Shown here piece after piece: positions 16,085 through 54,760 of a stretch of DNA of 64,000 bases. Below the pieces are notes generated by a model, which saw only the letters and a list, made by a program, of their open reading frames with translations, did no database searches and was not told the origin of the DNA. Within the stretch, counting starts at the first letter, position 1. Each line of letters starts with the position of its first letter. Source of the stretch: Patescibacteria group bacterium (GTDB lineage Bacteria > Patescibacteriota > Patescibacteriia > Buchananbacterales > UBA6539); NCBI GenBank assembly GCA_041649675.1, contig JBAZMQ010000004.1:16338-80337 (forward strand). The letters run 5' to 3'. Both the position numbers and the translations under genes were made by a program.

Positions 16085-16761
16085 AATCAAAAAAATTAGC
16101 CGGAAGTAAACCTAGCGCTGCCACCCAAAAATACTTGGATATTGCTGAAATCCGAGAGGATTGTGTTATTTTAAAGGATGGCACCCTGCGCGCGGTATTA
16201 TTAGTTTCCAGCATTAATTTTTCTCTAAAATCCGAAGACGAACAGAACGCCATAATTTCTGCTTACGTTAGTTTTTTAAATTATTTGGAATTTCCCTTAC
16301 AAATTGTCATTCAGTCACGCAAATTAGATATTGATGGCTACCTTAATCGGCTTAAAAAAATTGAAAAAGAGCAGACCAATGAATTACTGCGGATGCAAAC
16401 TGCTGAATACCGGCAATACATTACCGAGCTGGTTGAATTGGGAGATATAATGACTAAGCGTTTTTATATCATTGTACCGTATAATCCTTTGTCGGATAAA
16501 CAAAAATCGTGGGCTTCAAGATTTTTTAGTCTTTTTTCCGCTGCTTCCGAAGTAAAGCTTAGTCAGGAAGCGTTTATTAAAAGGCGGCGGGATTTAATGC
16601 AGCGAGTTGACAATATTGTCAGTGGTTTGGGTAGTATGAGTTTAAAAACAGTTTTATTGGATACCCAAAGTTTAGTTGAGCTTTACTATAATACTTATAA
16701 TCCGGATGTTTATAATAAAGAAAAAATGGTTGAAGTAAATAAACTACGAGTTGAAGAATAA
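16081..16761 (+). CDS. VirB4/TrbE N-terminal domain encoded as a separate ORF (226 aa)
   Basis: 'YLDIAEIREDCVILKDGTLRAVLLVSSINF...SEDEQNAIISAYVSFLN' resembles the conserved N-terminal region of VirB4/CagE/TrbE. Its stop TAA (16759-16761) lies 1 nt before the ATG of the ATPase ORF, in a different frame. Confidence 0.45.
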   Translation: MKSKKLAGSKPSAATQKYLDIAEIREDCVILKDGTLRAVLLVSSINFSLKSEDEQNAIISAYVSFLNYLEFPLQIVIQSRKLDIDGYLNRLKKIEKEQTNELLRMQTAEYRQYITELVELGDIMTKRFYIIVPYNPLSDKQKSWASRFFSLFSAASEVKLSQEAFIKRRRDLMQRVDNIVSGLGSMSLKTVLLDTQSLVELYYNTYNPDVYNKEKMVEVNKLRVEE

Positions 16762-16762
16762 T

Positions 16763-18685
16763 ATGGCAATAAAACCCCAAGAAATAATTAAAGAGGAGAA
16801 ACTGGCGGCTTTGGCAAACCAACAGCAGGCAGATGAACAGCAGCGGCAAAAAGAAAAACAGGATTTAGAAGAGCAAAAAATTCTTTTGGAAGAAGAACGG
16901 GTTTATCGCGAAGGCTTGGTTTCGATTAAAGATTTGATCGCGCCGGCGGCTTTGGAAGTAACTCCGACCTATATTAAAATTGGTGATCAGTTTGCCAGAA
17001 CCTTGTTTGCTTTTAGCTATCCTCGTTATATCGCTGTTGGCTGGTTTGCGCCGATAATTAATTTAAGCGTGCCCTTGGACATTGCCATGTATTTTTATCC
17101 GGTTAAATCCAACATTATTTTAAAGCAATTAAGAAATAAGGTTGGTGCTTTGGAAGCCCAAATTTTATCCGATCGCGAGAAGGGAGCACCTCGTGACCCG
17201 ATTCGGGAAACCGCTTTGCGCGATATTGAAAAATTAAGAGATGATTTGACTCAGGGGATTGAACATTTTTTTCAATTTGGCCTTTACGTTACAATTTATA
17301 GCGAGACTAAAGAGAAATTGGATAATTTAACTTCTGACGTTGAGGCTTTGTTTGGCTCTCGGCTGGTTTTTTCTAAAAAAGTTTTGTATCAAGCCGAACA
17401 GGGTTTTAATTCAACCTTGCCCTTGGGTAATGACGAATTAATGATTGGTTTTAACATGAATTCTTCGCCAGCGGCTTCCTCTTTCCCTTTTATTTCGTCT
17501 GAATTGAGTTCTGATGAGGGCGTTTTGTATGGTATTAATCGCCATAACAATAGTTTGATATTATTTGATCGTTTTTCTTTACAAAATGCTAATACAGTTG
17601 TCTTTGCTACTTCGGGTGCCGGTAAAAGTTATACTATCAAATTGGAAGTTTTGCGTACCATGATGTTTGGTACGGACGTTATTGTTATTGATCCGGAAAG
17701 AGAATATAAACATCTGTGCGATGCCGTTGGCGGGACTTATGTTAATATTTCCTTGAGCTCGGAAGCAAAAATTAATCCTTTTGATTTGCCGCGGGCAGTT
17801 GGTGATCAGCGTTCGGCCGATGTTATCCGGGGTGCGGTTATTACGTTAAAAGGTTTAGTTCGTTTAATGCTTGGCAAGCTGACTCACCAAGAAGATTCAA
17901 TCATTGATCGGGCCTTATTAGAAACTTACGCTAAAAAAGATATTACCGCCAGTTCTGATCTAAGTAAAATTGAAGCGCCAATCATGCAGGATTTTCAGGA
18001 TATTTTGGAAGGGATGGAAGGTGGTTCGGATTTATCTTTACGTTTAAAAAAATATACCCAAGGGACATTTGCCGGTTTGTTTAATCATCCGACCAACGTT
18101 GATATGAAAAATCAGTTGATTGTTTTTTCCGTTCGGGACTTGGAAGATGAGCTGCGGCCAATGGCAATTTATACGATTGTTAACTATATTTGGAATGTTG
18201 TCCGTTCGCAACTTAAGAAAAGAATTTTAATTATTGATGAAGCCTGGTGGCTGATGCAAAACGAAGATTCAGCTAAATTTATTTTTGCCTTGGTCAAACG
18301 CTGCCGAAAATACTATTTAGGGGTGACTAATATTACTCAAGATGTCAATGACTTTTTGCTTTCGCCTTATGGTCAAGCAATTGTCAACAATTCCGCTTTG
18401 CAATTATTAATGCGCCAATCACCGTCGGGAATTGATTTGGTCCAAAAAACCTTTATGCTAACCGAAGGCGAAAAATATTTGCTTTTGGAATGCGGTGTTG
18501 GTGAAGGAATATTTTTTGCCGGCGATAAACATGCGGCCATTAAAGTCGTTGCCTCTTACACTGAAGATCAGCTAATCACCTCTGATCCCAGGCAAATTTT
18601 GCAAATTGAAGAAGCTAAAAAAGAATTTGATTTGGCTTCACAGAACCAGGAGGTTGAAGAAGTTGAGGAACAAATATCCCAGTAG
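16763..18685 (+). CDS. virB4: VirB4/TrbE/CagE-family type IV secretion ATPase (C-terminal ATPase portion)
   Basis: Walker A 'ATSGAGKSYT', Walker B 'ILIIDEAWWL' and overall VirB4-like architecture. The ATG at 16763 is preferred over the TTG at 16751 used by the ORF track. Confidence 0.75.
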   Translation: MAIKPQEIIKEEKLAALANQQQADEQQRQKEKQDLEEQKILLEEERVYREGLVSIKDLIAPAALEVTPTYIKIGDQFARTLFAFSYPRYIAVGWFAPIINLSVPLDIAMYFYPVKSNIILKQLRNKVGALEAQILSDREKGAPRDPIRETALRDIEKLRDDLTQGIEHFFQFGLYVTIYSETKEKLDNLTSDVEALFGSRLVFSKKVLYQAEQGFNSTLPLGNDELMIGFNMNSSPAASSFPFISSELSSDEGVLYGINRHNNSLILFDRFSLQNANTVVFATSGAGKSYTIKLEVLRTMMFGTDVIVIDPEREYKHLCDAVGGTYVNISLSSEAKINPFDLPRAVGDQRSADVIRGAVITLKGLVRLMLGKLTHQEDSIIDRALLETYAKKDITASSDLSKIEAPIMQDFQDILEGMEGGSDLSLRLKKYTQGTFAGLFNHPTNVDMKNQLIVFSVRDLEDELRPMAIYTIVNYIWNVVRSQLKKRILIIDEAWWLMQNEDSAKFIFALVKRCRKYYLGVTNITQDVNDFLLSPYGQAIVNNSALQLLMRQSPSGIDLVQKTFMLTEGEKYLLLECGVGEGIFFAGDKHAAIKVVASYTEDQLITSDPRQILQIEEAKKEFDLASQNQEVEEVEEQISQ

Positions 18686-37511: not shown

Positions 37512-38708
37512 ATGGCAGAGATAAATCTTTTACCAAGTGATTTGAGAGAAAAGGAACAAAAAGAATTGGAAACGGCTAGAAAAAAGTCGAGGCCGGTTAA
37601 TATTGAATTAACTAATCCAAAAATTGAAAAGCTGAAAGAACCGGCTTATGCCGCACCCAGGCAGTCTATTCTAAGCCGTCTTTTTGCTAAAAAAATTGAG
37701 ACACCAAAATCATTATCATCTTTCCCTAATCAAGAACGCCAAAAACCGATTGAAAAAATGCCTAAAGTGGCGGAGAAAAATTTTCATATCCCAAGTTTAC
37801 CAATTGAGAAATCAAAAGTGAGAATTGATTTATCGGGTAATGAAGATGCCACTGCTCAGAAAGAAACGTTTGAGACTGATTACAAATTATTTAATGATGA
37901 ATCCGGCAAAGATAAAGTCAACGAGAAAAAAGAAGATCAGGTAAAGATTGAGTTGAATAAATTGCCACCAAAGAAGAAATCATTCAGTTTTAGTGGTTTA
38001 TTTTTTGGTAAAAAGATTAAGTCTGAAGATGACAGATCAAAACCAGTCGGTAATTTTGTCGCCAGAGAGAAGAAGGCTGGGAAAGTAAAAAATAAAAGTA
38101 GGGGTTTTAAAAGGGAAAAGACGGATATTTTGGACGTAAATTTAATTCCAGCCGAATTAGGCAAACGGCCCGAGTTGGAATTAGGCAAAAGACTATTTGC
38201 TTCCGGTGCTGTTATTCTTGGGTTTATTTTGTTAATTGCTGCAGGGTATTTGGGAATCACTTGGTACCAGGTTAAAGTTACTCAAGACATTAGCGGCGTT
38301 GAATCTAGAATTGAGACATTAGATCAAGAAATTGTTCAATATGAAAAAGATAAACAGGTTGCTTTAGACATGCAGCAAAGTCTAGAATCAGTCCGGCAAC
38401 TTTTGAATCAGCATGTCTATTGGACTAATTTTTTCAATTTGTTGGAAAAAAATACTATTGGTGAAGTGAAATATGTCAATTTTTCTATGGCCGGCCAGAA
38501 TAAATTAGTTATTTCGGCCTTTGGCAAAGATTATCATTCAGTCGCTAAACAATTGATTGCTTTTCAAAAAGCCACTGATTTTGTTAAAAACGTAAAAATT
38601 GACGCGGCTTCAGCCGAAATTGATCCTGAAACTGGCAATTATACCGGTGTTAATTTTAATATTGATTTAGAGTTTCAGCCTAATGTATTTTTAAAGCCGA
38701 TTGAATAG
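37512..38708 (+). CDS. pilN: PilN-like pilus assembly protein with a ~200-aa charged insertion
   Basis: Starts with the conserved 'EINLLPSDL' motif. A K/E-rich region and a single TM ('AVILGFILLIAAGYLGITWY') precede a PilN-like periplasmic domain. Confidence 0.55.
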   Translation: MAEINLLPSDLREKEQKELETARKKSRPVNIELTNPKIEKLKEPAYAAPRQSILSRLFAKKIETPKSLSSFPNQERQKPIEKMPKVAEKNFHIPSLPIEKSKVRIDLSGNEDATAQKETFETDYKLFNDESGKDKVNEKKEDQVKIELNKLPPKKKSFSFSGLFFGKKIKSEDDRSKPVGNFVAREKKAGKVKNKSRGFKREKTDILDVNLIPAELGKRPELELGKRLFASGAVILGFILLIAAGYLGITWYQVKVTQDISGVESRIETLDQEIVQYEKDKQVALDMQQSLESVRQLLNQHVYWTNFFNLLEKNTIGEVKYVNFSMAGQNKLVISAFGKDYHSVAKQLIAFQKATDFVKNVKIDAASAEIDPETGNYTGVNFNIDLEFQPNVFLKPIE

Positions 38709-39342: not shown

Positions 39343-39627
39343 ATGCTTGTCCCTAAAAAAATGACGAGAATAAAAAAAGCAATACTAGTTTTGGTTAGTA
39401 TTGGGCTTTTGGCAGTCATTGGTTATTTAGTCTATGACAATTTTATTGCTAATCCAAAAATAATCAGTACCAATATTAGCGGCAAGCGAATTCAGGTAAT
39501 CAATATTACCACTATTCAGCCTAATTTTTCCGATGATTTTTTACTTAAGTCGCCCTATACCAATCTCCAATCCCATTCACAGCCAATAATGATTGATAAT
39601 CTTGGTCGGGCAAATCCATTCCAATAA
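39343..39627 (+). CDS. Small membrane-anchored protein (94 aa), possibly PilP-like
   Basis: Single N-terminal TM; position inside the pilus operon. Confidence 0.35.
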   Translation: MLVPKKMTRIKKAILVLVSIGLLAVIGYLVYDNFIANPKIISTNISGKRIQVINITTIQPNFSDDFLLKSPYTNLQSHSQPIMIDNLGRANPFQ

Positions 39628-41435: not shown

Positions 41436-41813
41436 ATGTCTAAGAAAAAATCCATTCTTTTAGTTGAAGATGATGAGTTTTTGGCCGAACTTTATGCGAC
41501 CAAGCTCAATTTGGAGGGGTATGAAGTTTCTTTAGCGGTCAGCGGTGATAAAGGCTTAAAATTAATCAGAGAGAAAAAACCGGATTTGGTTTTGCTGGAT
41601 ATAATTTTACCGAAAATGGACGGGTTTGAGATTCTCAAGGCAGTTAAAGAAGATAAAGCCCTAAAAGACATTCCGATTATTCTTTTAACCAATTTAAGCC
41701 AAAAAGATGAAGTTAAGAAAGGTTTAGAACTGGGAGCGGTTGACTATTTGATTAAGGCCCATTTTATGCCTTCTGAAGTAGTCAAAAAGATAAAACAAGT
41801 GATGGGTGATTAA
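41436..41813 (+). CDS. Stand-alone response-regulator receiver domain protein (CheY/PilH-like)
   Basis: 'ILLVEDDEF...PDLVLLDIILPKMDGFEIL...KDIPIILLTNL' with receiver Asp residues. Confidence 0.8.
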   Translation: MSKKKSILLVEDDEFLAELYATKLNLEGYEVSLAVSGDKGLKLIREKKPDLVLLDIILPKMDGFEILKAVKEDKALKDIPIILLTNLSQKDEVKKGLELGAVDYLIKAHFMPSEVVKKIKQVMGD

Positions 41814-42939: not shown

Positions 42940-44145
42940 ATGCCTTATTTTCGTTACAAAGCCCAAGATGAAGAAGGGGAAACAATTGAAGGAATGATTC
43001 AAGCTGCTTCTCAGGACGTAGCGGCAGACACTTTGGCTGACCAAAATTTAACTATTTTATTTTTAAGTGAAGAAAAAGTTAGCTTTTTTGAACGGTCATT
43101 AAAATCTTTAAATCGGGTCAAGATTAAAGATCTAGTTATTTTTTCTCGGCAATTATCAGTCATTGTCTCGGCAACAATTCCTTTAGTTCAAGGTTTAAAG
43201 ATTTTAATTAATCAAACCGAAAGTCCGGTTTTAAAAACCGTAATTTCTGAGGTGGCTGATGATGTTGAAGGCGGGGCAAAACTTTCGGCGGCCCTGAGTC
43301 GCCACCGCGAGATATTTAATGATTTTTTTATTAATATTATTAGGTCCGGAGAAACCTCTGGTAAACTGGATGAAGTTTTAAATTATTTGGCTGATCAGCA
43401 GGAAAAAGATTATGATTTGGTTTCTAAAATTCGCGGGGCAATGATTTATCCGGCTTTTATCGTCTCTGGTCTTTTAATCGTTGGTACGGTAATGATGATT
43501 TTTGTCATTCCGCAGTTAACGTCAGTTTTAACCGAGACTGGTGCCGAGCTGCCACTTTCAACTAAGCTTTTAATTGGGGCTAGTAATTTTTTAACCCATT
43601 ATTGGTGGATTTTACTGATTGGTATTTCAGCAGTTATTCTTGGCTTAAGATTTTTTATCAAAACTAAATCGGGCCGGTATTATTGGGATAGTTTGAAATT
43701 GAAGCTTCCGATTTTTGGCAAGTTGTTTCAAAAGATAATTTTAGTTCGGTTTACTCGTAGTCTTTTTACCTTGACCACTGGTGGCGTATCTCTGACCAAA
43801 AGTTTGGATATTGTTTCTGATGTAGTTGGCAATCAGGTATATAAACAGTTGATTCAGGAAACCAAACGGGAGGTTGAAGACGGTAATTCAATTGCCACAG
43901 TTTTTATGCGCAGCAAGCAGGTGCCGGTTATGGTCTCACAAATGCTGAGTTTGGGCGAAAAGACTGGTCGAATTGATGATATTTTAAATCGTCTAGCTAA
44001 TTTTTATGGCCGGGAAGTTGATAATATTGTTACTAATTTAGTTAGTTTGTTAGAGCCATTAATTATGGTTTTGATGGCGGTAGCAGTTGGTGTCCTGGTT
44101 TCAGCAATAATTTTACCGATGTATAGCTTGGCTTCTAGTTTATAG
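42940..44145 (+). CDS. pilC: Type IV pilus inner-membrane platform protein PilC (GspF family)
   Basis: Two T2SS-F repeats and three TM helices, length 401 aa. Confidence 0.85.
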   Translation: MPYFRYKAQDEEGETIEGMIQAASQDVAADTLADQNLTILFLSEEKVSFFERSLKSLNRVKIKDLVIFSRQLSVIVSATIPLVQGLKILINQTESPVLKTVISEVADDVEGGAKLSAALSRHREIFNDFFINIIRSGETSGKLDEVLNYLADQQEKDYDLVSKIRGAMIYPAFIVSGLLIVGTVMMIFVIPQLTSVLTETGAELPLSTKLLIGASNFLTHYWWILLIGISAVILGLRFFIKTKSGRYYWDSLKLKLPIFGKLFQKIILVRFTRSLFTLTTGGVSLTKSLDIVSDVVGNQVYKQLIQETKREVEDGNSIATVFMRSKQVPVMVSQMLSLGEKTGRIDDILNRLANFYGREVDNIVTNLVSLLEPLIMVLMAVAVGVLVSAIILPMYSLASSL

Positions 44146-44249: not shown

Positions 44250-44437
44250 GGGTGAAAAAATGAGAAAGAAACAAGGTTTTACTCTTATTGAGTTGCTGGT
44301 AGTTATCGCTATTATTGGACTTTTGTCCACTTTGGCAGTTGTGGCTTTAAATTCCGCTCGTCAGAAGGCCAGGGATGCCAAGCGGGTGGCTGATATTAAA
44401 CAAATTCAGACCGCTTTAGAGCTTTATTTCAACGATA
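44250..44437 (+). repeat. Dispersed direct repeat copy A (~190 bp, ~93% identity overall, including an 89-nt 100%-identical core at 44347-44435) shared with the second pilin gene
   Basis: Direct comparison of the RBS and first ~180 nt of pilin 1 with pilin 2. Confidence 0.85.
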
Positions 44438-44721
44438 ACACAACTTATCCGGCAGCCACTGGTGATCTAGGTTCAACTAATTTTGCCTGTTTAGGTGGTG
44501 GTGGTTTCGGGACAGCCGGCGCTACGGCTTGTACCGGCACTACTTATATGGGGTTGATCCCATCCAATCCAGCCCCGACTGCTGCTTCAACTGGTGTTTA
44601 TTATTATGTTAGCGCTGGCGGAGATAGTTATAATATAATCTTTGCCCTTGAAGGAACTACTGGTGGATTGAACAAGGGAGCCAATGGGCTTTATACTGCC
44701 TCCCAAGACGGAATTAAGTAA
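44260..44721 (+). CDS. pilA: Type IV major pilin, paralog 1 (prepilin with class III signal peptide)
   Basis: 'MRKKQG|FTLIELLVVIAIIGLLSTLAV' prepilin cleavage/methylation motif. The start at ATG 44260 (RBS AGGAAAGGGGG) is preferred over the track start at 44227. Confidence 0.85.
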   Translation: MRKKQGFTLIELLVVIAIIGLLSTLAVVALNSARQKARDAKRVADIKQIQTALELYFNDNTTYPAATGDLGSTNFACLGGGGFGTAGATACTGTTYMGLIPSNPAPTAASTGVYYYVSAGGDSYNIIFALEGTTGGLNKGANGLYTASQDGIK

Positions 44722-44747
44722 TTTTCATATAATCTGGAGCTCCAAAA

Positions 44748-44782
44748 CAAACCCTCCATTACCTGGAGGGTTTGTTATTAAT
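44748..44782 (+). terminator. Intrinsic terminator after pilin 1 (12-bp stem AACAAACCCTCC/GGAGGGTTTGTT, loop ATTACCT, then T-rich)
   Basis: Perfect stem-loop followed by 'ttattaattt'. Confidence 0.75.
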
Positions 44783-44811
44783 TTCAGACCAAAAAATGGT
44801 ATAATAGAATC

Positions 44812-47076
44812 ATGAAATCATTAAAGAAAAATTTTTTGGTAATTGGCGGCTTTTTAGCTTTGGTGGTTTTATTTTTTTCACCTTATCTATTATCAGGAAA
44901 AATTCCTTATGTCGGAGATTTCACCGGCAGTGATTTAACCGAACTCAATCTACCTTTACGATTTTTAGCCAGCCAATCATGGCAATCTGGCCAGGTGCCG
45001 CTTTGGACTAATCTTCTAGCCAATGGTTTTGCCATCGTGGCTGAAGGCCAGGCGGGAGTTTTTTATCCTTTTAATTTAATCCTTTTCCCTTTTCTGCCCT
45101 TTGGTTTAGCCGTTAATCTGAGCCTGGTGATTAATTTCTTCCTGGCCGGTTTATTTATATACATTTACTGCCGATTTTTAAAAATTAGTCGCTTTGGTTC
45201 AATTTTTGCCGCAGTTGCTTTTAGTTTCAGTGGCTTTTTTGTTTTTCGGTTAAAGCATTTAAATTTGGTTAATGCCGCAATTTGGTTGCCATTAATATTC
45301 TATTTGATTGAAAAATATTTTGTTAGCAAAAGAAAATCATTAATTTTAATTGCTTTAAGTTTTGTTTTTACCATTCAATTTTTTGCCGGTCATCCGCAAA
45401 TTTTGTATATTTCTTTAATTTCAGCGGTTTTCTATTTTTACTTGAAAGCAATTTTTGTTTTCAATTTCAAAATTAATTATTTAATTACTAAATTAATCTG
45501 GCCTTGGATAATTATTGGCTTGATCTTGTTTGGTTTGGCCGCGATTCAGCTCTTACCAACCCTTTTTTATTCAGCTTCTTCCGGCCGAAGCTTAGCCATG
45601 TCTTATACTGATATCACCGGTTTTCCTTTTTTACCAGCCAATATTTTGTATTTTGTTGCGCCCTATTTTTTGGGCAATCCGGCTTTTGGGACTTATCCAT
45701 TTGATACTCATATTTTTGGTATCTTTTGGGAAAATAATATTTATTTTGGTTTAAGTGCCTTGCTTTTGGCTTTGGTGGCCATTTTTTCTTTAGTGGCCAA
45801 AAAGAAGGAAGTTAGATTTTTAGTAATTTTATTTTTGTTTTCCGGTTTATTTATCCTTGGCGATTCCAATCCAATATTTATTATTCTTTGGCAATTATTA
45901 CCGGGCTTGCAAATGTTTCGTTTTCCTCAACGCTTTTTTCTTTTGGCTTTATTTTGTCTAACGGTTTTGGCCGGATTTGGTTTTGATTTTATTTTTGAAA
46001 AAATAAATCAATGGTTTTTAAAAACCGGACGGATAATAAAATCAAAAATTTTGTTTAATACTTTATTACCGCTGACACTAATTTTAATTTTAGCTGTTGA
46101 TTTATTTGTAGTAAGCTTCAATTATTTGGGAGCGTTGGATTATGGGAAATATTTTTCTCCCTCGCAAAGTGCGCAATTTTTGCAACAAGACCCAGATAAA
46201 TTCAGAATTTATAGTTTTGACTGGCCAAACACTTGGAGTTCTATTTATCAAGTGTCTGGCGGTTGGCAAAATAATCTTTCACTTTTTAATTCCGGCCGCG
46301 AACTAATTCCGCCAAATTTGAATGTATTTTGGAATTTAGCTTCGGCTCAGGACAGAGCTTCTTTGGAAGGCGGCATGTTACCGAAAGCTGCCCAGCAGTT
46401 AGGCAACCGTTTAATGTTAGAGACTTGGTTGGGCAAAAATAATAATGGTAATAAAATTATTGTTTCCGATCAAGCCTTAAAAATTTTTGGCTTAGAAAAT
46501 GTTAAATATTTTTTATCATTCAAGGAGCTTGATAATCAGAATTTAATTTTAGCTAAGGAGATAAAAAATGATTTTTTGCCACCGCTAAAAATTTATCAAA
46601 ACAAATATTTTTTACCTTTCGCCTTTGGTGTGTTTAAAACGAAGTCAATATTGGCCGATGATCAGGCGATGAATTATCTTTTTGATCCGAATTTTGATCC
46701 GGCTCAAGAAATAGTTTTGGCTGCCGCTAAGGCTGATTTACCATCAACGGTTGAAAAACCGCAAGGGCAAGTCAAAATAATAAAGCAGCTTGGCAACCAA
46801 ATAGTTTTTCAAGTTAATTTTTCTCAGCCTGGCTATTTATTTGTTAGTCAAAATTTTGTGCCTGGTTGGCAAGCCAAAATTGATAATCAACCAACTAAAA
46901 TTATCAGAGCTAACCAAGTTTTCTCGGCAGTTTTAGTCCCAGCCGGTAATTACCAAATTACTTTTGCTTTTGAACCAATTGCTTATCTAATTGGTAAGTG
47001 GCTAACATTAATTACTTTGGCCAGTATATTTGTTTTTGGACTTTATGCTTTCTTTCGTAAAAAGTCAGTAATTTAA
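44812..47076 (+). CDS. Large polytopic membrane protein, YfhO-like putative GT-C glycosyltransferase (754 aa)
   Basis: About 12 N-terminal TM helices, a ~330-aa extracytoplasmic domain and a terminal TM ('WLTLITLASIFVFGLYAFF'). Own extended -10 'TGGTATAAT' at 44786-44794. Confidence 0.4.
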   Translation: MKSLKKNFLVIGGFLALVVLFFSPYLLSGKIPYVGDFTGSDLTELNLPLRFLASQSWQSGQVPLWTNLLANGFAIVAEGQAGVFYPFNLILFPFLPFGLAVNLSLVINFFLAGLFIYIYCRFLKISRFGSIFAAVAFSFSGFFVFRLKHLNLVNAAIWLPLIFYLIEKYFVSKRKSLILIALSFVFTIQFFAGHPQILYISLISAVFYFYLKAIFVFNFKINYLITKLIWPWIIIGLILFGLAAIQLLPTLFYSASSGRSLAMSYTDITGFPFLPANILYFVAPYFLGNPAFGTYPFDTHIFGIFWENNIYFGLSALLLALVAIFSLVAKKKEVRFLVILFLFSGLFILGDSNPIFIILWQLLPGLQMFRFPQRFFLLALFCLTVLAGFGFDFIFEKINQWFLKTGRIIKSKILFNTLLPLTLILILAVDLFVVSFNYLGALDYGKYFSPSQSAQFLQQDPDKFRIYSFDWPNTWSSIYQVSGGWQNNLSLFNSGRELIPPNLNVFWNLASAQDRASLEGGMLPKAAQQLGNRLMLETWLGKNNNGNKIIVSDQALKIFGLENVKYFLSFKELDNQNLILAKEIKNDFLPPLKIYQNKYFLPFAFGVFKTKSILADDQAMNYLFDPNFDPAQEIVLAAAKADLPSTVEKPQGQVKIIKQLGNQIVFQVNFSQPGYLFVSQNFVPGWQAKIDNQPTKIIRANQVFSAVLVPAGNYQITFAFEPIAYLIGKWLTLITLASIFVFGLYAFFRKKSVI

Positions 47077-47093
47077 TATTATATAATAATTTT

Positions 47094-48491
47094 ATGGCCA
47101 TTACTTTGGGCAATAAACAGTTAAGCAATTTATTTTATTTTGTTGTTGCTTATATTTTAATTTTGATTGGTTACGCTGCCAACCGCGGCTTATTTTTTAG
47201 CCAAACACAAGTCTGGTTTTTAATTTTAGCCTGGTTATTTTTAGTTTTGCCGTTTTTCAAAAAACAATTGTTGACTTTCAGGCTCAATCTTGATTTGCTA
47301 AACCTTCTTTTGTTAGTAGTTGGTTTTACCTTTTGTTTATCTTTGTTTTTTGACGAAGCAATGTATTTTTCCTCAAGGCAAGCTTTCTCAAATGTTTTTT
47401 TGTTAAAATCCCTGGCTTTGATTTTATTTCTTTTTTATTTTATTGATTTTAAATTTTTGTCTAAGAATTTTTTTAGTCTTGTCCTTTTGCATCTTTGGAA
47501 GAATAAGTTTATCTATTTATTAATTATTGCTTTTTTGCTTCGTTTATTAATAATTTTTTACTCACCCGCACCGCAAATTGATGTTTTTTGGTTTTTAGAC
47601 GGTGGCGCTAAGGCTTTAGTGGCCGGTCATAATCCTTATTCGGAAGTATTTTTTAATCCTTATACTGCTGATCAAGGAAAACAACTTTATGGTGATGCTA
47701 ATTTTCAAAATGATAATTACTCCTATTTACCAACAACTATTTTTTTGACTACTATCTCTAAATTATTTTTTGGCGACGTTCGCTTTATTTATTTGTTTGC
47801 GGTTTTTGGTACCGCAGCAATCATTTATTTTTTAGTTAGAAGAAAATTCGGCCAGCCAGCGGAAATTGCCGAGTTATTATCTTTGCTAATTCTTTATGCG
47901 CCGCTATCGCTTTTTGTTTTAGAGCAGGCCTGGAGCGAGCCGCTATCAATCTTTTTGTTGGCTTTATTTGTTTTGGCTGTAAGTCTTAATTGGCGTTATC
48001 TGCCGTATTTAATTTTTGGTTCTTTTCTGGGAGTCAAGCAGGTCTCTTTGGTATTTTTGGCTTTTTTATGTCGTTTTGAGTTTATTAATCCAAAGAAGTA
48101 TTTGTTGTCCATCGTGACAATGTTAGCAATTATTCTTCCTTTTTTAGCTTGGGACTGCCGTAATTTTATTAATGACACTATTGTTCATCACGTTTTATTT
48201 CAGCCGCCGCTTCATTCATTGACTTTGAATACTCTAAGCAGAATCTTATTTTATCAAGATATCCCAGCAGTAATTTATTTGCCTTTATTATTAGGCTTAT
48301 TCTTATTTTTATTTTTTAAAACTAAAAGAGATTTATCGGGCATTATTCACTCCTCGTTAGTTTTTCTTTTTGCCTTATTTTTAATAAAACAAGGTTTTGC
48401 TAATTACTATTATAGTATTATTGGTGGCCTAATAATTCTAATGGCTTTGGAATTAGGCCAACCCGACTTAAATTATGAAAATCAAAAATAA
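47094..48491 (+). CDS. Polytopic membrane protein (465 aa), putative GT-C-type glycosyl/mannosyltransferase
   Basis: More than 10 predicted TM helices with short loops. No soluble domain. Confidence 0.4.
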   Translation: MAITLGNKQLSNLFYFVVAYILILIGYAANRGLFFSQTQVWFLILAWLFLVLPFFKKQLLTFRLNLDLLNLLLLVVGFTFCLSLFFDEAMYFSSRQAFSNVFLLKSLALILFLFYFIDFKFLSKNFFSLVLLHLWKNKFIYLLIIAFLLRLLIIFYSPAPQIDVFWFLDGGAKALVAGHNPYSEVFFNPYTADQGKQLYGDANFQNDNYSYLPTTIFLTTISKLFFGDVRFIYLFAVFGTAAIIYFLVRRKFGQPAEIAELLSLLILYAPLSLFVLEQAWSEPLSIFLLALFVLAVSLNWRYLPYLIFGSFLGVKQVSLVFLAFLCRFEFINPKKYLLSIVTMLAIILPFLAWDCRNFINDTIVHHVLFQPPLHSLTLNTLSRILFYQDIPAVIYLPLLLGLFLFLFFKTKRDLSGIIHSSLVFLFALFLIKQGFANYYYSIIGGLIILMALELGQPDLNYENQK

Positions 48492-50346
48492 ATTGGATAA
48501 ATTATACAAAGCATTGATTAGCCAGTACCAAAAATTAATAATAGATAGAAATTTTATTCTAGCGGCTGTAATTTTTACCGTCGCCATTGCCGTCTATCTT
48601 TTTACTTTGGCCCCGTCAGTTACCATGGAAGATAGTGCTGAATTGATTACCACCGCTTACACTTTAGGCATTGCCCACCCTTCCGGTTATCCGTTATATG
48701 TTTTATTGGGTCACCTTTTTACCTGTATTCCTTGGGCAACGATTGCTTGGCGGGTTAATTTGTTGTCAGCCGTTTTTGGCGCTTTAACAATTGCTTTGTT
48801 CTATTTGATTTTAGTTAAAATAAATATTAAAAAGCCAATTGCCTTTTGTTGTGGCTTGGTTGCCGCTTTTGGCCCGATATTTTGGTCACAAAGCGTAGTA
48901 GCCAAATTTTATACCCTCAATACCTTCTTTGTTTGTTTATTAATTTTAATTCTTTTAATTTGGTCACAAAAAAAAGAAAACAAATACTTGCTTTGGTTTT
49001 CTTTGCTGTATGGAGTTAGCTTGACTAACCACACGATGATTATTCTCTTAGCGCCGGCTTTTGCCGTCTATATAGTTTTTACCGAGCGTAAAATTATTTT
49101 GAATTGGCCTTTGATTTTAAAAATGTTTATCCTTTTTTTGTTAGGCCTGCTTGTTTATTTATATATCCCGATTCGGGCCTGGCAAAAGCCGGTTTTTAAC
49201 TGGGGAATTATTAGTACCTGGCATGATGTTTGGGTTCATATTGGTAGGCGACAGTATAATGATTTTTCACCTTTGCTCAATTCTTACGGCAAAGTTGGCA
49301 TTTTTGTTTCTTTTATTTTTGAAATTTATCGTCAATTTTTTTGGCCGGCTTTACTGCTAGCATTTTTAGGCGTGGTCTATCTTTGGCAAAAGAGTAAGGC
49401 CTTAACGCTTTTAACGGTCGGTGTTTTTTTAGGCAATAGCCTGGGAATAATTTTTTTGCGTAAATTTGGTTGGGGATTAGGAATTGATTATACTTACCGA
49501 GTTTATTATTTGCCAGCTTTTTTAATGGTTATCGTTTGGGTTGCATTTATTATTAATTATCTTTATAATTTTTTGATTCAAGCGCTTGCTGGCAAACCAA
49601 AATTATTTTTGCGGTTGAGCCAAACAATATTTTTTGTACTTTTGTTTTCTTTACCGCCAAGCTTCTTGATTAATAATTATAAACTCTGCGATTTCAGTCA
49701 TTTCTGGTTTAATTATGATTACACTAAAAATCTTTTGGCCAGCCTTGAACCAAATAGCATTTATTATTTTGCCTACGATGGCAGTTTGCAAGGTGATACT
49801 GAGCTTTTTACTCTAGCTTATTTTAAAATGGTCCAAAATTTTCGGCCTGATGTCAGCGTAATTTCTGAGCAAAATCTTTTTTACAAGGATGTTTTGATCA
49901 CCTTACCTAAGGAGTATTACAAATTAGACTTTGAAAATCGCCGAAAAGAGATTTTTAAATTGTTACAAGAAATAAAGGGTCGGCCGATTTACTCTAATTT
50001 TGCTCCAACCAATGATGATCTAACCGCTGGAGTTTTTGCTTTGTCAAATGGTTATGCCTATCGGTTTTATTCAAACATTAAATTAGCAGCTCAGGTAAAA
50101 CCGACATTATATTTAGCGGCAATTAGGGGCCTGAGCGAAGTAGATGAACTTGATGATTATCCAACTGCCGGGCTAGCGGCCCATTATTATTATAATTTAG
50201 CTTCCTTTTATTTGACGGCCGGGCAAAAGAATAAATCGCAATATTATTTAATCAAGGCTTTTAATTTAGACACCGCACCGCAGAATCATGAATATCGTCG
50301 ATTTATGGTTTACCGTTCCCAGTGGTTAAAACAAGGTAAAAATTAA
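48475..50346 (+). CDS. DUF2723/TMEM260-like polytopic membrane protein with C-terminal soluble repeat domain (putative O-glycosyltransferase)
   Basis: N-terminal 'MEDSAELITTAYTLGIAHPSGYPLY' matches the conserved DUF2723 acidic/HPPGYP-type motif. About 11 TM helices plus a ~270-aa C-terminal domain. Confidence 0.45.
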   Translation: MKIKNKLDKLYKALISQYQKLIIDRNFILAAVIFTVAIAVYLFTLAPSVTMEDSAELITTAYTLGIAHPSGYPLYVLLGHLFTCIPWATIAWRVNLLSAVFGALTIALFYLILVKINIKKPIAFCCGLVAAFGPIFWSQSVVAKFYTLNTFFVCLLILILLIWSQKKENKYLLWFSLLYGVSLTNHTMIILLAPAFAVYIVFTERKIILNWPLILKMFILFLLGLLVYLYIPIRAWQKPVFNWGIISTWHDVWVHIGRRQYNDFSPLLNSYGKVGIFVSFIFEIYRQFFWPALLLAFLGVVYLWQKSKALTLLTVGVFLGNSLGIIFLRKFGWGLGIDYTYRVYYLPAFLMVIVWVAFIINYLYNFLIQALAGKPKLFLRLSQTIFFVLLFSLPPSFLINNYKLCDFSHFWFNYDYTKNLLASLEPNSIYYFAYDGSLQGDTELFTLAYFKMVQNFRPDVSVISEQNLFYKDVLITLPKEYYKLDFENRRKEIFKLLQEIKGRPIYSNFAPTNDDLTAGVFALSNGYAYRFYSNIKLAAQVKPTLYLAAIRGLSEVDELDDYPTAGLAAHYYYNLASFYLTAGQKNKSQYYLIKAFNLDTAPQNHEYRRFMVYRSQWLKQGKN

Positions 50347-50456
50347 TAAATTGGTTGTCAGTTGTATTTACTAAAAACATAAATTCTGGTATAATCTAGA
50401 GTAGAGGATTTAATCTCAATTTAAATACTAAAAAAACAAAGAAAAAACAAAGAAAG

Positions 50457-50644
50457 GGGGTGGAAAATGAGAAAGAAACAAGGTTTTACTCTTATTGAGT
50501 TGTTGGTAGTTATTGCCATTATTGGGCTTTTGTCCACTTTGGCAGTAGTTTCATTAAATTCCGCTCGTCAGAAGGCCAGGGATGCCAAGCGGGTGGCTGA
50601 TATTAAACAAATTCAGACCGCTTTAGAGCTTTATTTCAACGACA
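50457..50644 (+). repeat. Dispersed direct repeat copy B (partner of 44250-44437)
   Basis: See copy A. The 89-nt identical core is at 50554-50642. Confidence 0.85.
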
Positions 50645-50949
50645 ATAATAGTTATCCTAACGACGTTGGTGCTGATGTGACTTTGGGTGGATCGGCTAGT
50701 AATAATTGTTTGGGTAATGACGGTTTCAATACCGCTGGTAGCACTTGTTCAGCGCCAGTTTATATGGGCTTAATTCCTTCTAATCCAACACCCGGTGGAA
50801 CAGCCTATATTTATCAAGGGGTAGGCGAAACCGGTGGTTATTGCCAAACTGGCATTTGTCCTAAATATCAAATTACATTTAGTTTAGAAGGCAAGACCGG
50901 TGGTTTAGAATCAGGTCTCCATACTGCTTATCAAGACGGAATGAAATAA
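50467..50949 (+). CDS. pilA: Type IV major pilin, paralog 2
   Basis: 'MRKKQG|FTLIELLVVIAIIGLLSTLAV'. The first 60 aa are near-identical to paralog 1 and the C-terminal half diverges (more Cys residues). Confidence 0.85.
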   Translation: MRKKQGFTLIELLVVIAIIGLLSTLAVVSLNSARQKARDAKRVADIKQIQTALELYFNDNNSYPNDVGADVTLGGSASNNCLGNDGFNTAGSTCSAPVYMGLIPSNPTPGGTAYIYQGVGETGGYCQTGICPKYQITFSLEGKTGGLESGLHTAYQDGMK

Positions 50950-50965
50950 TTTCTAAATATAGATC

Positions 50966-51006
50966 AAAACAAGGCTTTGCTCTTCGGTGAGGCCTTGTTT
51001 TTTGCC
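50966..51006 (+). terminator. Intrinsic terminator after pilin 2 (10-bp stem CAAAACAAGGC/GCCTTGTTTT, 16-nt loop, T-run)
   Basis: Inverted repeat followed by 'ttttttgcc'. Confidence 0.7.
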
Positions 51007-51102: not shown

Positions 51103-51849
51103 ATGTATAGTTTTTTCATCTTTATCCTAGGACTGATAGTTGGTAGTTTTTTAAATGTGGTTATTCTGCGGCTAGGGACTAAAAAGTCGTTTTTCACCGG
51201 CCGGTCCCAATGCCCTTGTTGCGGCAAAAAAATTGCGGCTTACGACAATATTCCTCTAGTCAGTTTTATTCTTCTGCGCGGTCATTGTCGTAATTGTAAG
51301 AAAAATATTTCTTGGCAGTATCCTTTAATTGAATTACTCACTGCTTTTATTTTTGTTTGGTTCTCTCTGCGTTTTGGTTTAACGGCGCAGTTTTTAATTT
51401 ACTCAATTTTTAGTAGTTTTTTAATAGTCATTTTTGTCTATGATCTTAAAAACTATTTGATCCTGGATCAAATTACAATCCCAGCAATGGTCATTGCTTT
51501 TTTTTCCAGTCTATACTTGGGCCTCGGTCTAGGGAATATAATTTTAGCCGCTATTATTGGCAGCGGCTTTTTTGCCCTTCAGTACTTTATTTCAAAAGGT
51601 AAATGGGTTGGTGATGGTGATATTCGCCTAGGGGCTTTAATGGGTTTAATGCTGGGTTGGAAATTTTTGTTAGTCGCTTTATTTTTGGCCTATATTATTG
51701 GTAGCATCTTTGGTCTCACTTTAATTTTGGTGGGCAAAAAAAAGATGTCTTCGGCCGTACCTTTTGGTCCGTTTTTAACTCTTGGTACCTTCATTGCTTT
51801 GATTTACGGGCAATCAATTTTAAATTGGTATTTTAATTTACTTTATTGA
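51103..51849 (+). CDS. pilD: Prepilin peptidase PilD (A24 family)
   Basis: N-terminal tetracysteine 'CPCCGKK...CRNC', multiple TM helices and conserved Asp residues. Confidence 0.85.
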   Translation: MYSFFIFILGLIVGSFLNVVILRLGTKKSFFTGRSQCPCCGKKIAAYDNIPLVSFILLRGHCRNCKKNISWQYPLIELLTAFIFVWFSLRFGLTAQFLIYSIFSSFLIVIFVYDLKNYLILDQITIPAMVIAFFSSLYLGLGLGNIILAAIIGSGFFALQYFISKGKWVGDGDIRLGALMGLMLGWKFLLVALFLAYIIGSIFGLTLILVGKKKMSSAVPFGPFLTLGTFIALIYGQSILNWYFNLLY

Positions 51850-52502
51850 TGAACAGATTTTTAGTTAAAAAATCATCACGACGTTTCCCCTCAGCCGGTT
51901 TTACCGTAATTGATCTTTTGGTTTCAGTAGCGATACTGGGAATAATGCTTACTTTTGTTTTAGCTAACTTTCGGGCCGCTAAAACTAGCGGTGATTTAGA
52001 TGTTGTTATTAAAAGAATTGTTGACGGGATTACTACGGTTAGAAATATGAGTTTAGGCGGTCAACTGACCAACAGTTCTTTCCCCGAAGGTGGTTATGGC
52101 ATCCATTTTGATTTTGATAATCCCAACCGTTATATTTTGTTTTTAGCGGCTGTAGCTGGTAATAGCTATATTCCTAATGTTAACGGATTAAGTAATGGTA
52201 TTGTTGAATTTGACGGCATTAAATTAACAGAAGTTTGTGGCCATAAAGAGTTACAATTAAATGAAACTTTGGGTTTACCTTGTACCGACAGTTGGCAAAG
52301 AATTAATTGGCAAACAGCTGGCGATTTTATGGAAATTAAATTCTTAGCTTACAATGAAATGGCCATTAATTATTCTAACTATCAATTAAGTGATGACTTT
52401 AAATATATTGGCGGGGTTGTTAGCCAGGAAAAAACTGGTCAAACCGGCTATTTCTATGTTTCCTTAGTTTCCGGCTTAATTTCTGGTGATTTAAAAAGAT
52501 GA
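51846..52502 (+). CDS. Minor pilin / pseudopilin
   Basis: Prepilin motif 'SAGFTVIDLLVSVAILGIM'. Confidence 0.6.
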   Translation: MMNRFLVKKSSRRFPSAGFTVIDLLVSVAILGIMLTFVLANFRAAKTSGDLDVVIKRIVDGITTVRNMSLGGQLTNSSFPEGGYGIHFDFDNPNRYILFLAAVAGNSYIPNVNGLSNGIVEFDGIKLTEVCGHKELQLNETLGLPCTDSWQRINWQTAGDFMEIKFLAYNEMAINYSNYQLSDDFKYIGGVVSQEKTGQTGYFYVSLVSGLISGDLKR

Positions 52503-53104
52503 AAAATAAGAAAAAATTACAATTTGGCCAAAGCTTATTAGAAACAATTTTTGCAATCGGCATTCTATTGATTGTGTTAGCAGCAATTCTGGCTTTGGTT
52601 ACCTCCTCGGTGATTGGTCAAAAAGAAAGTGAATCGCAAATTATTGCTAATAATTTGGGCCGGGAAGCAATTGAAGCGGTTAGAAATATCCGTGATTCAA
52701 ATTGGCTAGGCAATCAGCAATGGGATTTGGGTTTGGTTGACCCGGTAACTGCCTCTGGCTATACTGCTGCCCGAGCCGATATTTCTGATACTGGCAGTTG
52801 GCAACTGAGTTTTTTTTCCGATCAGGAAATCAATAATAAAGATTTACTTTACGTTTCGCCTCTGGGCATTTATAGCCATAATCCGATTGGCAGCGAGCAA
52901 TCACTTTTTTCTCGTCATTTAACCTTGGAAAGTATTTGTCAGGGAAAAGATTTGGCTGGCAATTATCTAGCTGAGGTAATTAAAAGGACTTGCGATCAAA
53001 CTGAATTGAAAGTCGGTATTAAAGTTAAAGCAATAGTTCAATGGCAAGAACGCGGCCGACTTCGGCAAGTAGTTTTAGATGATTTAATTTATGAATGGAA
53101 ATAA
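52499..53104 (+). CDS. Minor pilin / pseudopilin
   Basis: Prepilin-like N-terminus 'GQSLLETIFAIGILLIVL'. Confidence 0.55.
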   Translation: MKNKKKLQFGQSLLETIFAIGILLIVLAAILALVTSSVIGQKESESQIIANNLGREAIEAVRNIRDSNWLGNQQWDLGLVDPVTASGYTAARADISDTGSWQLSFFSDQEINNKDLLYVSPLGIYSHNPIGSEQSLFSRHLTLESICQGKDLAGNYLAEVIKRTCDQTELKVGIKVKAIVQWQERGRLRQVVLDDLIYEWK

Positions 53105-53885
53105 TTACAAAAAAATAAAATCCGGATTTACCTTAATTGAAATTTTAGTGGTTTTAGGGATATTTTCGCTTTTAGTGGTTGTTATTATTAATGTTTTTTT
53201 ATTAGCTTTGCAGTCTCAGCGGCAGACTTCCAGTCGTCAAAAATCCTTATCAAATCTTCGCTATGTGACCGAAACCATTGCCCAACGTATCCGAACTTCA
53301 GAGATTAATTATTCAGGTTATGACAACAATATTATTACCAATCCAAACGACAAATTGGCTTTAATTGATCAAGCCGGTAACAAGTTAAATTATTTTAAAG
53401 AGGGGGACAGTATTAAATTTGAAAACGAATCAAGCGGCGAGCAGGCCTTAATTACCGATCTGAGCCAAGTTAAGGTAGTTAATTTATCTTTTTATATTAA
53501 TCCAGTAACCGATCCTTTTACCGAAGATCGCTGCAATGAAGACGCCGATTGCAAAAATTCGTTAATCTCCCTTGGCGGCGGCTGCAGTTTGTTAGGTAAA
53601 ATCTGCAAGGCCGGATCGAATAAAGGCAAACCTTGTTCTTCAGTTAATGATTGTGCTGGTAATGAATGTTATTCCCCGGAATTTAAAGTTGGATTTTGCC
53701 AATGCAGCCAAAATGCCGATTGTAAAACAAATTATTGTCAGCCAAGCGAACATCTGTGCGTGCCGCTTGACCGTCAGCCGCTGGTAACAATGGTTTTGGG
53801 TTTTCAGTCAGTGGGGACAAAAGTTGAGCAGCAAAAAACAATTTATTTACAAACTACTATTTCCAGCCGGATTTATAAGCGTTAA
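53091..53885 (+). CDS. Minor pilin / pseudopilin, Cys-rich C-terminal domain
   Basis: 'KSGFTLIEILVVLGIFSLLVV' class III signal. Confidence 0.6.
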   Translation: MNGNNYKKIKSGFTLIEILVVLGIFSLLVVVIINVFLLALQSQRQTSSRQKSLSNLRYVTETIAQRIRTSEINYSGYDNNIITNPNDKLALIDQAGNKLNYFKEGDSIKFENESSGEQALITDLSQVKVVNLSFYINPVTDPFTEDRCNEDADCKNSLISLGGGCSLLGKICKAGSNKGKPCSSVNDCAGNECYSPEFKVGFCQCSQNADCKTNYCQPSEHLCVPLDRQPLVTMVLGFQSVGTKVEQQKTIYLQTTISSRIYKR

Positions 53886-53887
53886 TT

Positions 53888-54760
53888 ATGACAAGGATTT
53901 TTAAAAAACAATCAGGCATGGTCTTAATTCTGGTAATTTTAATTATTACTGCAGTTTTGGGTACGGCCGCAATTTTTAGTACTTTAATTGTCCGTGATAT
54001 CCAGCAGTCCCGTTTAATTGACCAATCAATCCAAGCCTATTATTTAGCTGAAAGCGGAGCGGAACGGTCTTTGTACCAGGTCCGACGGCGAGAGGCAATA
54101 ACTGATTGTGAAAAAGTGACACTGTCTGGTGTTTGTGATGATAACGGTTATTGTGTTGCTAATTCAACGATCCCTTGCGTTAACCAGGCCGGTGGCTTTG
54201 ATTGGAGTATTCGCGGCGGTTGGCAGATAAAAGCCAGTAACGAAACCGAAACATCATTTTCCTTCAGTCCCGGACAGTCTTTTCAAATTGATCTATTTAA
54301 TCCTTATCAATCAGGTGGTTCCAATATTCGGTCAGTTGGTGTTGATTGCAATATACCCAACCTTACTTTAAACGCAGAGTTTACTAATTTGTCTAATATT
54401 TTAAAAATCAGTAATTCTAATTGTTTAAACCAGCCGCCAGTATTTAAACAGGCAATTGATTCTTACCCTAATTCCATTGCGACTTTGGATGGCCGAGATA
54501 TCTTTACTGATTGTGCTTATAGTTTTCGTTTAACTTATCCGGTTGTTAGCGCCAACGATTCCAATGTCGCTACGGTGGTTACTTTAAAAGTTTATGATTC
54601 AGTTGGCAGTCAAATTGATATTCCCAGTCGTTTAATTATTGATTCCCAAGCGACCTTTGGTAATTCTTTTCAAAAGATTCGGGTTAGAACGCCAATGCGT
54701 CCGCCGTTATCCGGTCTTTATGATTTTGTTTTATTTTCCGAACAACCAATAATTAAGTAA
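53888..54760 (+). CDS. PilX-like minor pilin
   Basis: N-terminal 'KQSGMVLILVILIITAVLGTAAIFS' hydrophobic prepilin-like segment. Confidence 0.5.
   Translation: MTRIFKKQSGMVLILVILIITAVLGTAAIFSTLIVRDIQQSRLIDQSIQAYYLAESGAERSLYQVRRREAITDCEKVTLSGVCDDNGYCVANSTIPCVNQAGGFDWSIRGGWQIKASNETETSFSFSPGQSFQIDLFNPYQSGGSNIRSVGVDCNIPNLTLNAEFTNLSNILKISNSNCLNQPPVFKQAIDSYPNSIATLDGRDIFTDCAYSFRLTYPVVSANDSNVATVVTLKVYDSVGSQIDIPSRLIIDSQATFGNSFQKIRVRTPMRPPLSGLYDFVLFSEQPIIK

Follow-up and report, generated by a model that had tools for sequence, protein, structure and literature searches.

Analysis of a 64,000-nucleotide (nt) stretch of DNA from a Patescibacteria group bacterium (assembly GCA_041649675.1, contig JBAZMQ010000004.1, positions 16,338 to 80,337 of the forward strand; the whole stretch is called the window here) indicated that three consecutive genes in a type IV pilus locus probably form a cassette for the extracytoplasmic O-glycosylation of pilins. 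The encoded proteins were designated P1 (754 amino acids, aa), P2 (465 aa) and P3 (623 aa). The probability of this reading was estimated at roughly 0.6; its acceptor, order of action and sugar are what we infer. Given their site between pilin genes, P1–P3 are the strongest candidates so far for a system that glycosylates pili in the ultrasmall Patescibacteria. An earlier note on this DNA had placed three consecutive open reading frames (ORFs) at 44812–50346, between pilin genes and before pilD and the minor pilins, and the ORF list agreed with it exactly. P1 and P2 are separated by 17 nt, and P2 and P3 overlap by 17 nt. The window carries a complete type IV pilus locus on a single strand (+), with near-identical pilin genes on either side of the P1–P3 block and with pilD and the minor pilins downstream (Table 1). 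The nearest relatives are labelled Candidatus Buchananbacteria. The earlier proposal of pilin O-glycosylation gained support from the placement of the P3 homolog in the pilus locus in 12/12 relatives with enough flank and from the conservation of catalytic residues of the human enzyme TMEM260; its choice of acceptor is kept as a proposal.

Pfam analysis of P3 revealed a match to the TMEM260-like/DUF2723 family (PF11028) with 112.5 bits (cut-off 24.2, E 2.5e-32) and a match to PMT_2 (E 3e-6). P3 also aligned with the structure of human TMEM260 (9rql) over residues 32–488 (E 5e-38, about 30% identity). The earlier note was right in assigning the 623-aa protein to DUF2723/TMEM260 and wrong in having it begin with MEDSAELITT: the N-terminus is MKIKNKLDK, and the motif EDSAEL...AHPSGYP covers residues 51–75, just after the first transmembrane (TM) segment, in outside loop 1. 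The extracytoplasmic C-terminal domain of P3 measures about 220 aa, and a single TPR_8 match at its C-terminal end (residues 569–599, E 0.012) was sub-threshold.

TMEM260 is the human protein O-mannosyltransferase for IPT domains; it grips its acceptor peptide in an extended form and has a luminal domain for peptide binding. Donor binding depends on D52, H67, R264 and Y267, which are essential, and D441 acts as catalytic base (preprint 10.64898/2026.03.17.711096). Mapping by HMMER alignment and ungapped BLOSUM scoring showed that these residues correspond to D53, H68, R258, Y261 and D441 of P3, so that 5/6 published functional residues are conserved; the region corresponding to R355, a sugar contact on TM helix 10 of TMEM260, does not align with P3. 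For D441 the ungapped score was 43, against 22 at the next offset, with the shared RPD motif (457–459) as anchor. In an alignment of 38 homologs reaching into other phyla, D53, E56, H68, R258, Y261, D441, R457 and D459 were invariant. P3 is a DUF2723/TMEM260-like glycosyltransferase of the GT-C fold, with predicted activity. The two proteins share the loop-1 motif, the donor-binding D/H/R/Y residues and the catalytic-base Asp of the Rossmann-like domain, and may share a TPR-like C-terminal end. However, the C-terminal region of P3 is shorter (623 aa in total vs 707–729 aa), its acceptors cannot be IPT domains, and its donor lipid would be bacterial polyprenyl phosphate. TMEM260 adds one mannose that is not elongated, whereas the extra GT-C proteins beside P3 suggest elongation. 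TMEM260 is a human disease gene, and the reading of P3 given here would be the first functional hypothesis for its bacterial homologs.

P1 matched the Pfam YfhO family (PF09586) with 71.4 bits (cut-off 28.5, E 7e-20), and an identical protein is named 'YfhO family protein' at NCBI. Its match to the NCBIfam models of PgfM1 and PgfM2 was weak and C-terminal (20 bits vs cut-offs of 1400–1500). The AlphaFold2 model of P1 had a predicted local distance difference test score (pLDDT) of 91.9 and a predicted template modelling score of 0.92. Foldseek matches of this model included AftD (E 2.7e-7), AglB, AftA, STT3, Pmt4, DPY19 and ArnT, and its high-probability matches were GT-C enzymes only. A topology sketch from hydropathy and charge predicted a cytoplasmic, positively charged N-terminus and 11 TM segments. 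The first outside loop (55 residues) carries D36 and D41 in this sketch, and the C-terminal part consists of an extracytoplasmic alpha/beta domain of about 300 residues and a terminal TM helix. D41, the conserved acidic residue of the first large outside loop, was nearly invariant among relatives. P1 is a YfhO-family GT-C glycosyltransferase, with activity predicted from its sequence and model.

Three-component systems with YfhO-family proteins comprise CsbB/GtcA/YfhO of B. subtilis and the streptococcal GtrB/PgtC2 and PgfS/PgfM1/PgfM2. P1 resembles them in its 11 TM helices, large outside domain and terminal TM helix, but sits in a pilus locus and is paired with DUF2723. The donors of YfhO, PgtC2 and PgfM1 are undecaprenyl phosphate-linked hexose or N-acetylhexosamine. 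PgtC2 and PgfM1 act outside the cell, where they O-glycosylate protein segments rich in Ser/Thr (PMC12041528).

P2 had no Pfam match even at E ≤ 1, leaving the GT87 (PF09594) threshold unmet, and none in NCBIfam; neither P2 alone nor the first P2 profile matched any PDB sequence. Among its relatives, 5/23 close ones and 14/50 in a wider set reached Pfam GT87 (best 2.9e-10), and a profile of the 50 family sequences gave glycosylphosphatidylinositol (GPI) mannosyltransferase 1 (GPI-MT-I) as the sole significant match in the PDB (E 7.5e-7). The AlphaFold2 model of P2 had a pLDDT of 91.4. Its top Foldseek matches were PimE (9dm5) and GPI-MT-I of C. glabrata (9wno), with probability 1.0 and TM-scores of 0.44–0.54, and the first 16 matches fell on PimE, GPI-MT-I, ArnT, PIG-U, ALG9, ALG3, ALG12, STT3 and EmbB. 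D163, invariant in the 50 family sequences, lies after five TM segments in a 78-residue loop predicted to face outward. P160, Y211, P213, R230 and P270 are likewise invariant in the family. With PimE and PIG-M, P2 shares the conserved loop-1 Asp and a Y-x-Y-x-P-type motif; the donors of PimE and PIG-M/Gpi14 are polyprenyl or dolichyl phosphate mannose. P2 differs from PimE and GPI-MT-I in staying under the GT87 threshold, in the low TM-scores given above, and in about four extra N-terminal TM helices. As judged from sequence profiles and the model, P2 is a predicted GT-C glycosyltransferase, and its unnamed family is related to GT87 (PimE) and GT50 (PIG-M/Gpi14). An exhaustive profile search found at least 5365 cluster representatives of this family at 50% clustering (2093 at E ≤ 1e-30), mostly of 410–520 aa. 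The family is largely missed by Pfam GT87 and would merit a family model of its own.

Sequence matches and, for P1 and P2, Foldseek matches agreed on a GT-C assignment for all three proteins, as the earlier note had supposed. Its description of the 754-aa protein as YfhO-like was upheld by Pfam, and its listing of the all-TM 465-aa protein among the GT-C enzymes by the homology chain to GT87/GT50 plus the fold. Of the checks it had suggested, hidden Markov model searches gave the Pfam matches of P1 and P3 reported above and none for P2, and in the structure comparison ArnT was among the matches of the P1 and P2 models and Pmt4 among those of P1. The possibility that P1–P3 are polytopic transporters or permeases and not glycosyltransferases, to which the all-helical membrane character of P2 and its lack of a Pfam match could point, is negligible. 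The sequence matches in Pfam and the PDB were YfhO, GT87, GPI-MT-I and TMEM260, and the top structural matches were all GT-C at probabilities of 0.96–1.0, while transporters appeared in Foldseek only at probabilities below 0.1; a transporter identity was rejected. It is also very improbable that P1–P3 are catalytically inactive structural or assembly parts of a monoderm-type pilus, replacing, for example, missing alignment or secretin parts. Pilus loci of Patescibacteria do hold several unassigned membrane proteins (two in the window, Table 1), and PIG-U, a non-catalytic subunit with the GT-C fold, is among the structural matches of P2. However, the TMEM260 donor-binding and catalytic residues were invariant across the 38 homologs, the loop-1 Asp of P1 and P2 was invariant or nearly so, and two of the three cassette genes are dispensable in relatives. 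Taken together, non-enzymatic and transporter roles were left with a very small chance.

Loci of relatives were obtained by exact-protein look-ups and two collection scans, and were annotated by phmmer with the window's own pilus proteins and by a class-III signal-peptide pattern. The ortholog set consisted of DUF2723 proteins scoring at least 300 bits against P3 with usable flanks, plus a fusion protein from locus L169; an alignment-based metagenome scan gave mostly distant DUF2723 homologs, which were used as background. In 12/12 relatives with enough flank (L001, L003, L005, L006, L007, L008, L009, L010, L011, L089, L115 and L169), the DUF2723 gene was inside the pilus locus, adjoining pilin genes and/or pilD, and in most of them it was between the major-pilin genes and pilD. 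This placement held down to 32–37% identity. In L169, a 5.6-kb contig, pilD was the sole pilus gene, with two unannotated small ORFs downstream.

The partners of DUF2723 varied. L001 and L009 had the same set as the window (YfhO, GT87-like, DUF2723). L003 carried a class-I S-adenosylmethionine (SAM) methyltransferase (9360–10001) between YfhO and DUF2723, and L005 carried YfhO, a GT87-like protein, a methyltransferase (9324–10004) and DUF2723. YfhO and DUF2723 made up the cassettes of L006 and L010. L007 had a 511-aa PMT_2/GT87-like protein before DUF2723, and L115 had DUF2723 alone. In L169 (81–3674), an MptA/B- or PMT_2-like GT-C protein was followed by a 774-aa GtrA-DUF2723 fusion and then directly by pilD. 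DUF2723 is the constant core of the cassette, and its partners are accessory. The GtrA-DUF2723 fusion adjoining pilD suggests that the sugar donors are flipped polyprenyl-phosphate sugars, and the methyltransferases suggest methylated sugars. In the 963-aa protein P0174, which is probably the YfhO protein of L010 because the 45,535-bp contig of L010 matches that of P0174, a class-I SAM methyltransferase is fused to the C-terminus of YfhO; its position after the terminal TM helix fits, because the use of SAM requires a cytoplasmic location. In L011, three genes between DUF2723 and pilD were considered as sugar genes and rejected, since they form a restriction-modification island (2695–5787, minus strand) of two C5 DNA methylases and an MTaX1/HNH endonuclease, with an AbiEii toxin fragment upstream.

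Of 77 distant DUF2723 loci from many other phyla that were flanked on each side by 3 kb or more, 12 had a pilin-like ORF within 5 kb. In one of the pilin-linked cases, the gammaproteobacterial metagenome-assembled genome of locus L070 (7370–14782), a canonical PilA gene was directly downstream of DUF2723, in the order sulfatase-GDPD fusion (876 aa), DUF2723, PilA, with an adjacent 629-aa unknown protein. The sulfatase-family enzyme recalls Neisseria PptA, the pilin phospho-form transferase, and the locus may be an independent pilin-modification island. Tandem paralog arrays without pilus genes made up 20/158 distant loci; L014 (9950–21665), L012, L056 and L074 are such arrays, with 3–6 DUF2723 paralogs and no pilus genes nearby, and arrays of this kind occur in Armatimonadota, Elusimicrobia and others. 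They clearly point to diversification of the DUF2723 family onto other acceptors.

The candidate acceptors are the two major-pilin-like proteins flanking the cassette. The mechanical ORF start of the upstream pilin is 44227, but the gene most likely starts at ATG 44260, because the Shine-Dalgarno (SD) sequence AAAGGGGGTG, 6 nt before this codon, is identical to that of the downstream pilin; the prepilin then begins MRKKQG|FTLIEL. The globular parts of the pilins contained 17–30% Ser+Thr, 15–23% Gly and two or four Cys (upstream pilin: 21% Ser+Thr, 21% Gly), and the pilins carry the conserved segments IPSNPTP(G/N)G and TGGL..G.HTA[ST].DG. The 5' regions of the two genes (44260–44440 and 50467–50647) share about 180 nt of DNA with about 95% identity, in which a stretch of about 87 nt is identical throughout. 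In each related genome, the paired pilins flanking the cassette share genome-specific substitutions, which indicates concerted evolution by gene conversion. This direct repeat brackets the 5.7-kb cassette and could mediate cassette deletion with formation of a chimeric pilin.

Both pilin genes carry the strong SD AAAGGGGGTG (GGGGGT) after a long leader, in contrast to the cassette. RNA folding of the intergenic region after the upstream pilin gave −27.6 kcal/mol, with a hairpin that has equivalents after the upstream pilin in L001, L003, L005, L006, L007 and L115. The region after the downstream pilin gave −36.3 kcal/mol; its hairpin was not listed by the consensus terminator scan. An extended −10 element, TGGTATAAT, stands 6 nt before the ATG of P1, which has no SD. 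The pattern TGnTATAAT recurred 5–9 nt before the start codon of the first cassette gene in L001 (~6400–6419), L003 (~7100–7116), L005 (~5672–5690) and L115 (~8770–8785), corresponding to 44797–44811 in the window. A second copy of TGGTATAAT precedes the leader (about 70 nt) and strong SD of the downstream pilin. The copy before P1 is a probable promoter of a leaderless cassette transcript. From these signals, the pilins would be monocistronic and strongly translated, and the cassette would be a separate transcript, probably leaderless and weakly translated. Such a stoichiometry would be expected if the cassette enzymes act on an abundant substrate.

Several results weigh against pilins as the dedicated substrate of P1–P3. 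The long disordered Ser/Thr tracts of the streptococcal substrates were not found in the pilins, and the human TMEM260 sequon Px6Px3Px2GGx3T was rejected as a pilin feature, because just a loose Pro-rich/GG segment with other spacing was present. No GT2 polyprenyl-phosphate sugar synthase and no GtrA or GtcA flippase, the partners that P1 would have in the YfhO three-component systems, was found in the 10 kb to the right or among the window ORFs scanned with Pfam (most ORFs of at least 100 aa and few smaller ones). Co-transcription of the cassette with the pilins is not supported, since the cassette seems to be driven by a promoter of its own and a hairpin parts it from the upstream pilin. The whole region is syntenic in the clade, including the unrelated ligA, gatCA and dsbA, so that a functional link gains little support from conserved gene order by itself. 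DUF2723 in other phyla is mostly not linked to pili, and many of these genes are tandem paralogs. Most characterised YfhO enzymes decorate teichoic acids (lipoteichoic and wall teichoic acid), and PimE and PIG-M, the GT87/GT50 relatives of P2, extend glycolipids and not protein-linked glycans. PgtC2 and PgfM1 modify many membrane proteins (PMC12041528).

The predicted promoter, the equal synteny of ligA and gatCA, the spread of DUF2723 and the substrates of the characterised relatives would suit a general extracytoplasmic glycosylation system, one acting on envelope polymers or many surface proteins, with pilins as no target or one of many and with a historical position in the pilus locus. This alternative is considered rather unlikely. 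The stronger arguments from placement are that DUF2723 stays at its junction with the pilin genes and/or pilD while its partners turn over, that it does so even at 32–37% identity, and that linkage to pilA recurs independently in Proteobacteria. In addition, the closest characterised homolog of the core protein is protein-specific, with its peptide-binding luminal domain.

For a pilin O-glycosylation cassette, the following mechanism is proposed. GT-C enzymes draw on sugars linked to polyprenyl phosphate and work at the non-cytoplasmic side of the membrane, and in the predicted topologies the conserved acidic residues of P1–P3 are all in outward-facing loops. Enzymes with genes elsewhere in the genome would charge polyprenyl phosphate with monosaccharides in the cytoplasm, and the charged lipids would be flipped to the outer face of the membrane. 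P3 would then initiate O-glycosylation at Ser/Thr of the membrane-anchored pilins, adding probably mannose or another hexose; it is proposed as the initiator because DUF2723 is the one cassette gene present in every relative and because the human homolog attaches O-linked mannose to peptide segments in an extended form. Elongation or branching of the pilin glycan, one sugar at a time, would fall to P1 and P2. In some lineages, the methyltransferases would modify the sugar, presumably on the lipid-linked precursor in the cytoplasm, since SAM is cytoplasmic. The variable partner enzymes may thereby give lineage-specific pilus glycans.

Glycosylation by a GT-C enzyme linked to a pilin gene is already known; here it would be multi-enzyme, DUF2723-centred, modular and located in Patescibacteria. 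The closest functional analog is TfpW of P. aeruginosa, a GT-C enzyme whose gene lies directly after pilA, so that in both cases a GT-C gene adjoins a major pilin gene. TfpW, the D-arabinofuranosyl transferase of group IV pilin, uses a polyprenyl-phosphate sugar, and pilin O-glycosylation depends on it; its N-terminus is cytoplasmic, it spans the membrane with about 11 TM helices, and its C-terminal TPR domain is extracytoplasmic. Comparison of TfpW with P3 by published motifs showed that TfpW has DDX in periplasmic loop 1 where P3 has the acidic EDS, and that the loop-4 motif YX6PFX7P of TfpW occurs neither in P3 nor in any DUF2723 locus tested, including the pilin-adjacent proteobacterial ones. 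TfpW is a single enzyme of a diderm, whereas up to three GT-C families occur here in a Patescibacteria genome, and the mannose-type relatives of P1–P3 point away from the arabinofuranose of TfpW. PilO/TfpO and PglL (Wzy_C family) are also pilin-adjacent or pilin-acting and work on the outer face of the membrane, but they have a different fold and family and transfer a preassembled lipid-linked oligosaccharide en bloc; the cassette contains no Wzy_C protein.

In the literature searched, which covered publications outside subscription journals, pilin glycosylation in Patescibacteria appeared as a software prediction only, for Saccharibacteria. No paper linking YfhO or DUF2723 to Patescibacteria pili was found there, and the bacterial DUF2723 proteins were mentioned merely as 'distant homologs in bacteria' of TMEM260.

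A wider reading can be put forward tentatively, as possible though short of probable: that bacterial TMEM260/DUF2723 proteins serve solely to O-glycosylate (probably O-mannosylate) pilins and, in Patescibacteria, nucleate a modular GT-C assembly line that works entirely outside the cytoplasm. A lineage-variable oligosaccharide would then be built directly on the pilus subunit from polyprenyl-phosphate monosaccharides, and neither a cytoplasmic lipid-linked oligosaccharide nor an oligosaccharyltransferase would be needed. If true, the bacterial branch of the TMEM260 family would gain its first function, and a variable surface-glycan determinant would be defined on an organelle for episymbiont host contact and phage reception. 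Among the organelles for host contact and motility in Patescibacteria, type IV pili are the best supported. A conserved cassette of variable content in their locus is a concrete, testable system, and it may account for pilus surfaces that differ between lineages, which would bear on host range and phage evasion.

Table 1. Positions of the predicted cassette, its signals and the surrounding pilus genes in the window.
Feature	Position	Strand	Remark
pilM	36361	+	Upstream of P1–P3
Unassigned membrane-protein ORFs in pilus locus	37512–38708, 39343–39627	+	
pilO	Between the two unassigned ORFs	+	
pilB	39667	+	
Response regulator (stand-alone receiver gene)	41436–41813	+	Between pilB and pilT
pilT	41831	+	
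pilC, platform protein	42940–44145	+	Pfam T2SSF 2e-59; left border of the pilin/glycosyltransferase block
Upstream major-pilin-like gene	44260–44721	+	Pfam N_methyl 6e-10; candidate acceptor
Hairpin, 13-bp, GC-rich	44746–44776	+	Terminator- or attenuator-like; directly 3' of upstream pilin
Extended −10 element TGGTATAAT	44797–44805	+	Before the P1 start codon
P1, predicted YfhO-family GT-C glycosyltransferase, 754 aa	44812–47076	+	
P2, predicted GT-C glycosyltransferase of an unnamed family related to GT87/GT50, 465 aa	47094–48491	+	
P3, predicted DUF2723/TMEM260-like GT-C glycosyltransferase, 623 aa	48475–50346	+	Constant core of the cassette
Extended −10 element TGGTATAAT	50387–50395	+	Upstream of downstream pilin
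Downstream major-pilin-like gene, 160 aa, 4 Cys	50467–50949	+	Pfam N_methyl 7e-10; candidate acceptor
Strong terminator-like hairpin into a U-run	50966–51001	+	3' of downstream pilin; by RNA folding only
pilD, prepilin peptidase	51103–51849	+	Pfam A24_N_bact 8e-33, Peptidase_A24 5e-12; right border
Four minor-pilin-like ORFs	51846–54760	+	N_methyl in 2/4

Among the relatives, pilC was at the equivalent position in L001, L003, L005, L006, L007, L010 and L115, and the same four minor-pilin-like genes were present. In the window, ligA, gatC, gatA and dsbA come after the minor-pilin-like ORFs. The receiver gene kept its position in L001, L003, L005, L006 and L115 and was missing from L007. The lower GC content and T-rich skew of P1–P3 were considered as signs of a recent insertion, and this was rejected because the clade as a whole has the cassette in synteny and such a skew is in keeping with the composition of membrane proteins.

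Of two giant ORFs (26–7915 and 7924–11781), one encodes a 2629-aa protein that carries a carbohydrate-binding domain (CBM_4_9) and the other a 1285-aa protein without a Pfam match. The earlier note had named the large secreted proteins as an alternative glycosylation target; this was not borne out, as their genes are 33–45 kb away with no specific link. After the giant ORFs come genes of a type IV secretion-like kind (PrgI family, VirB4/TraG-like ATPase; including 15626–18685), which resemble the monoderm-type type IV secretion system described for Patescibacteria.

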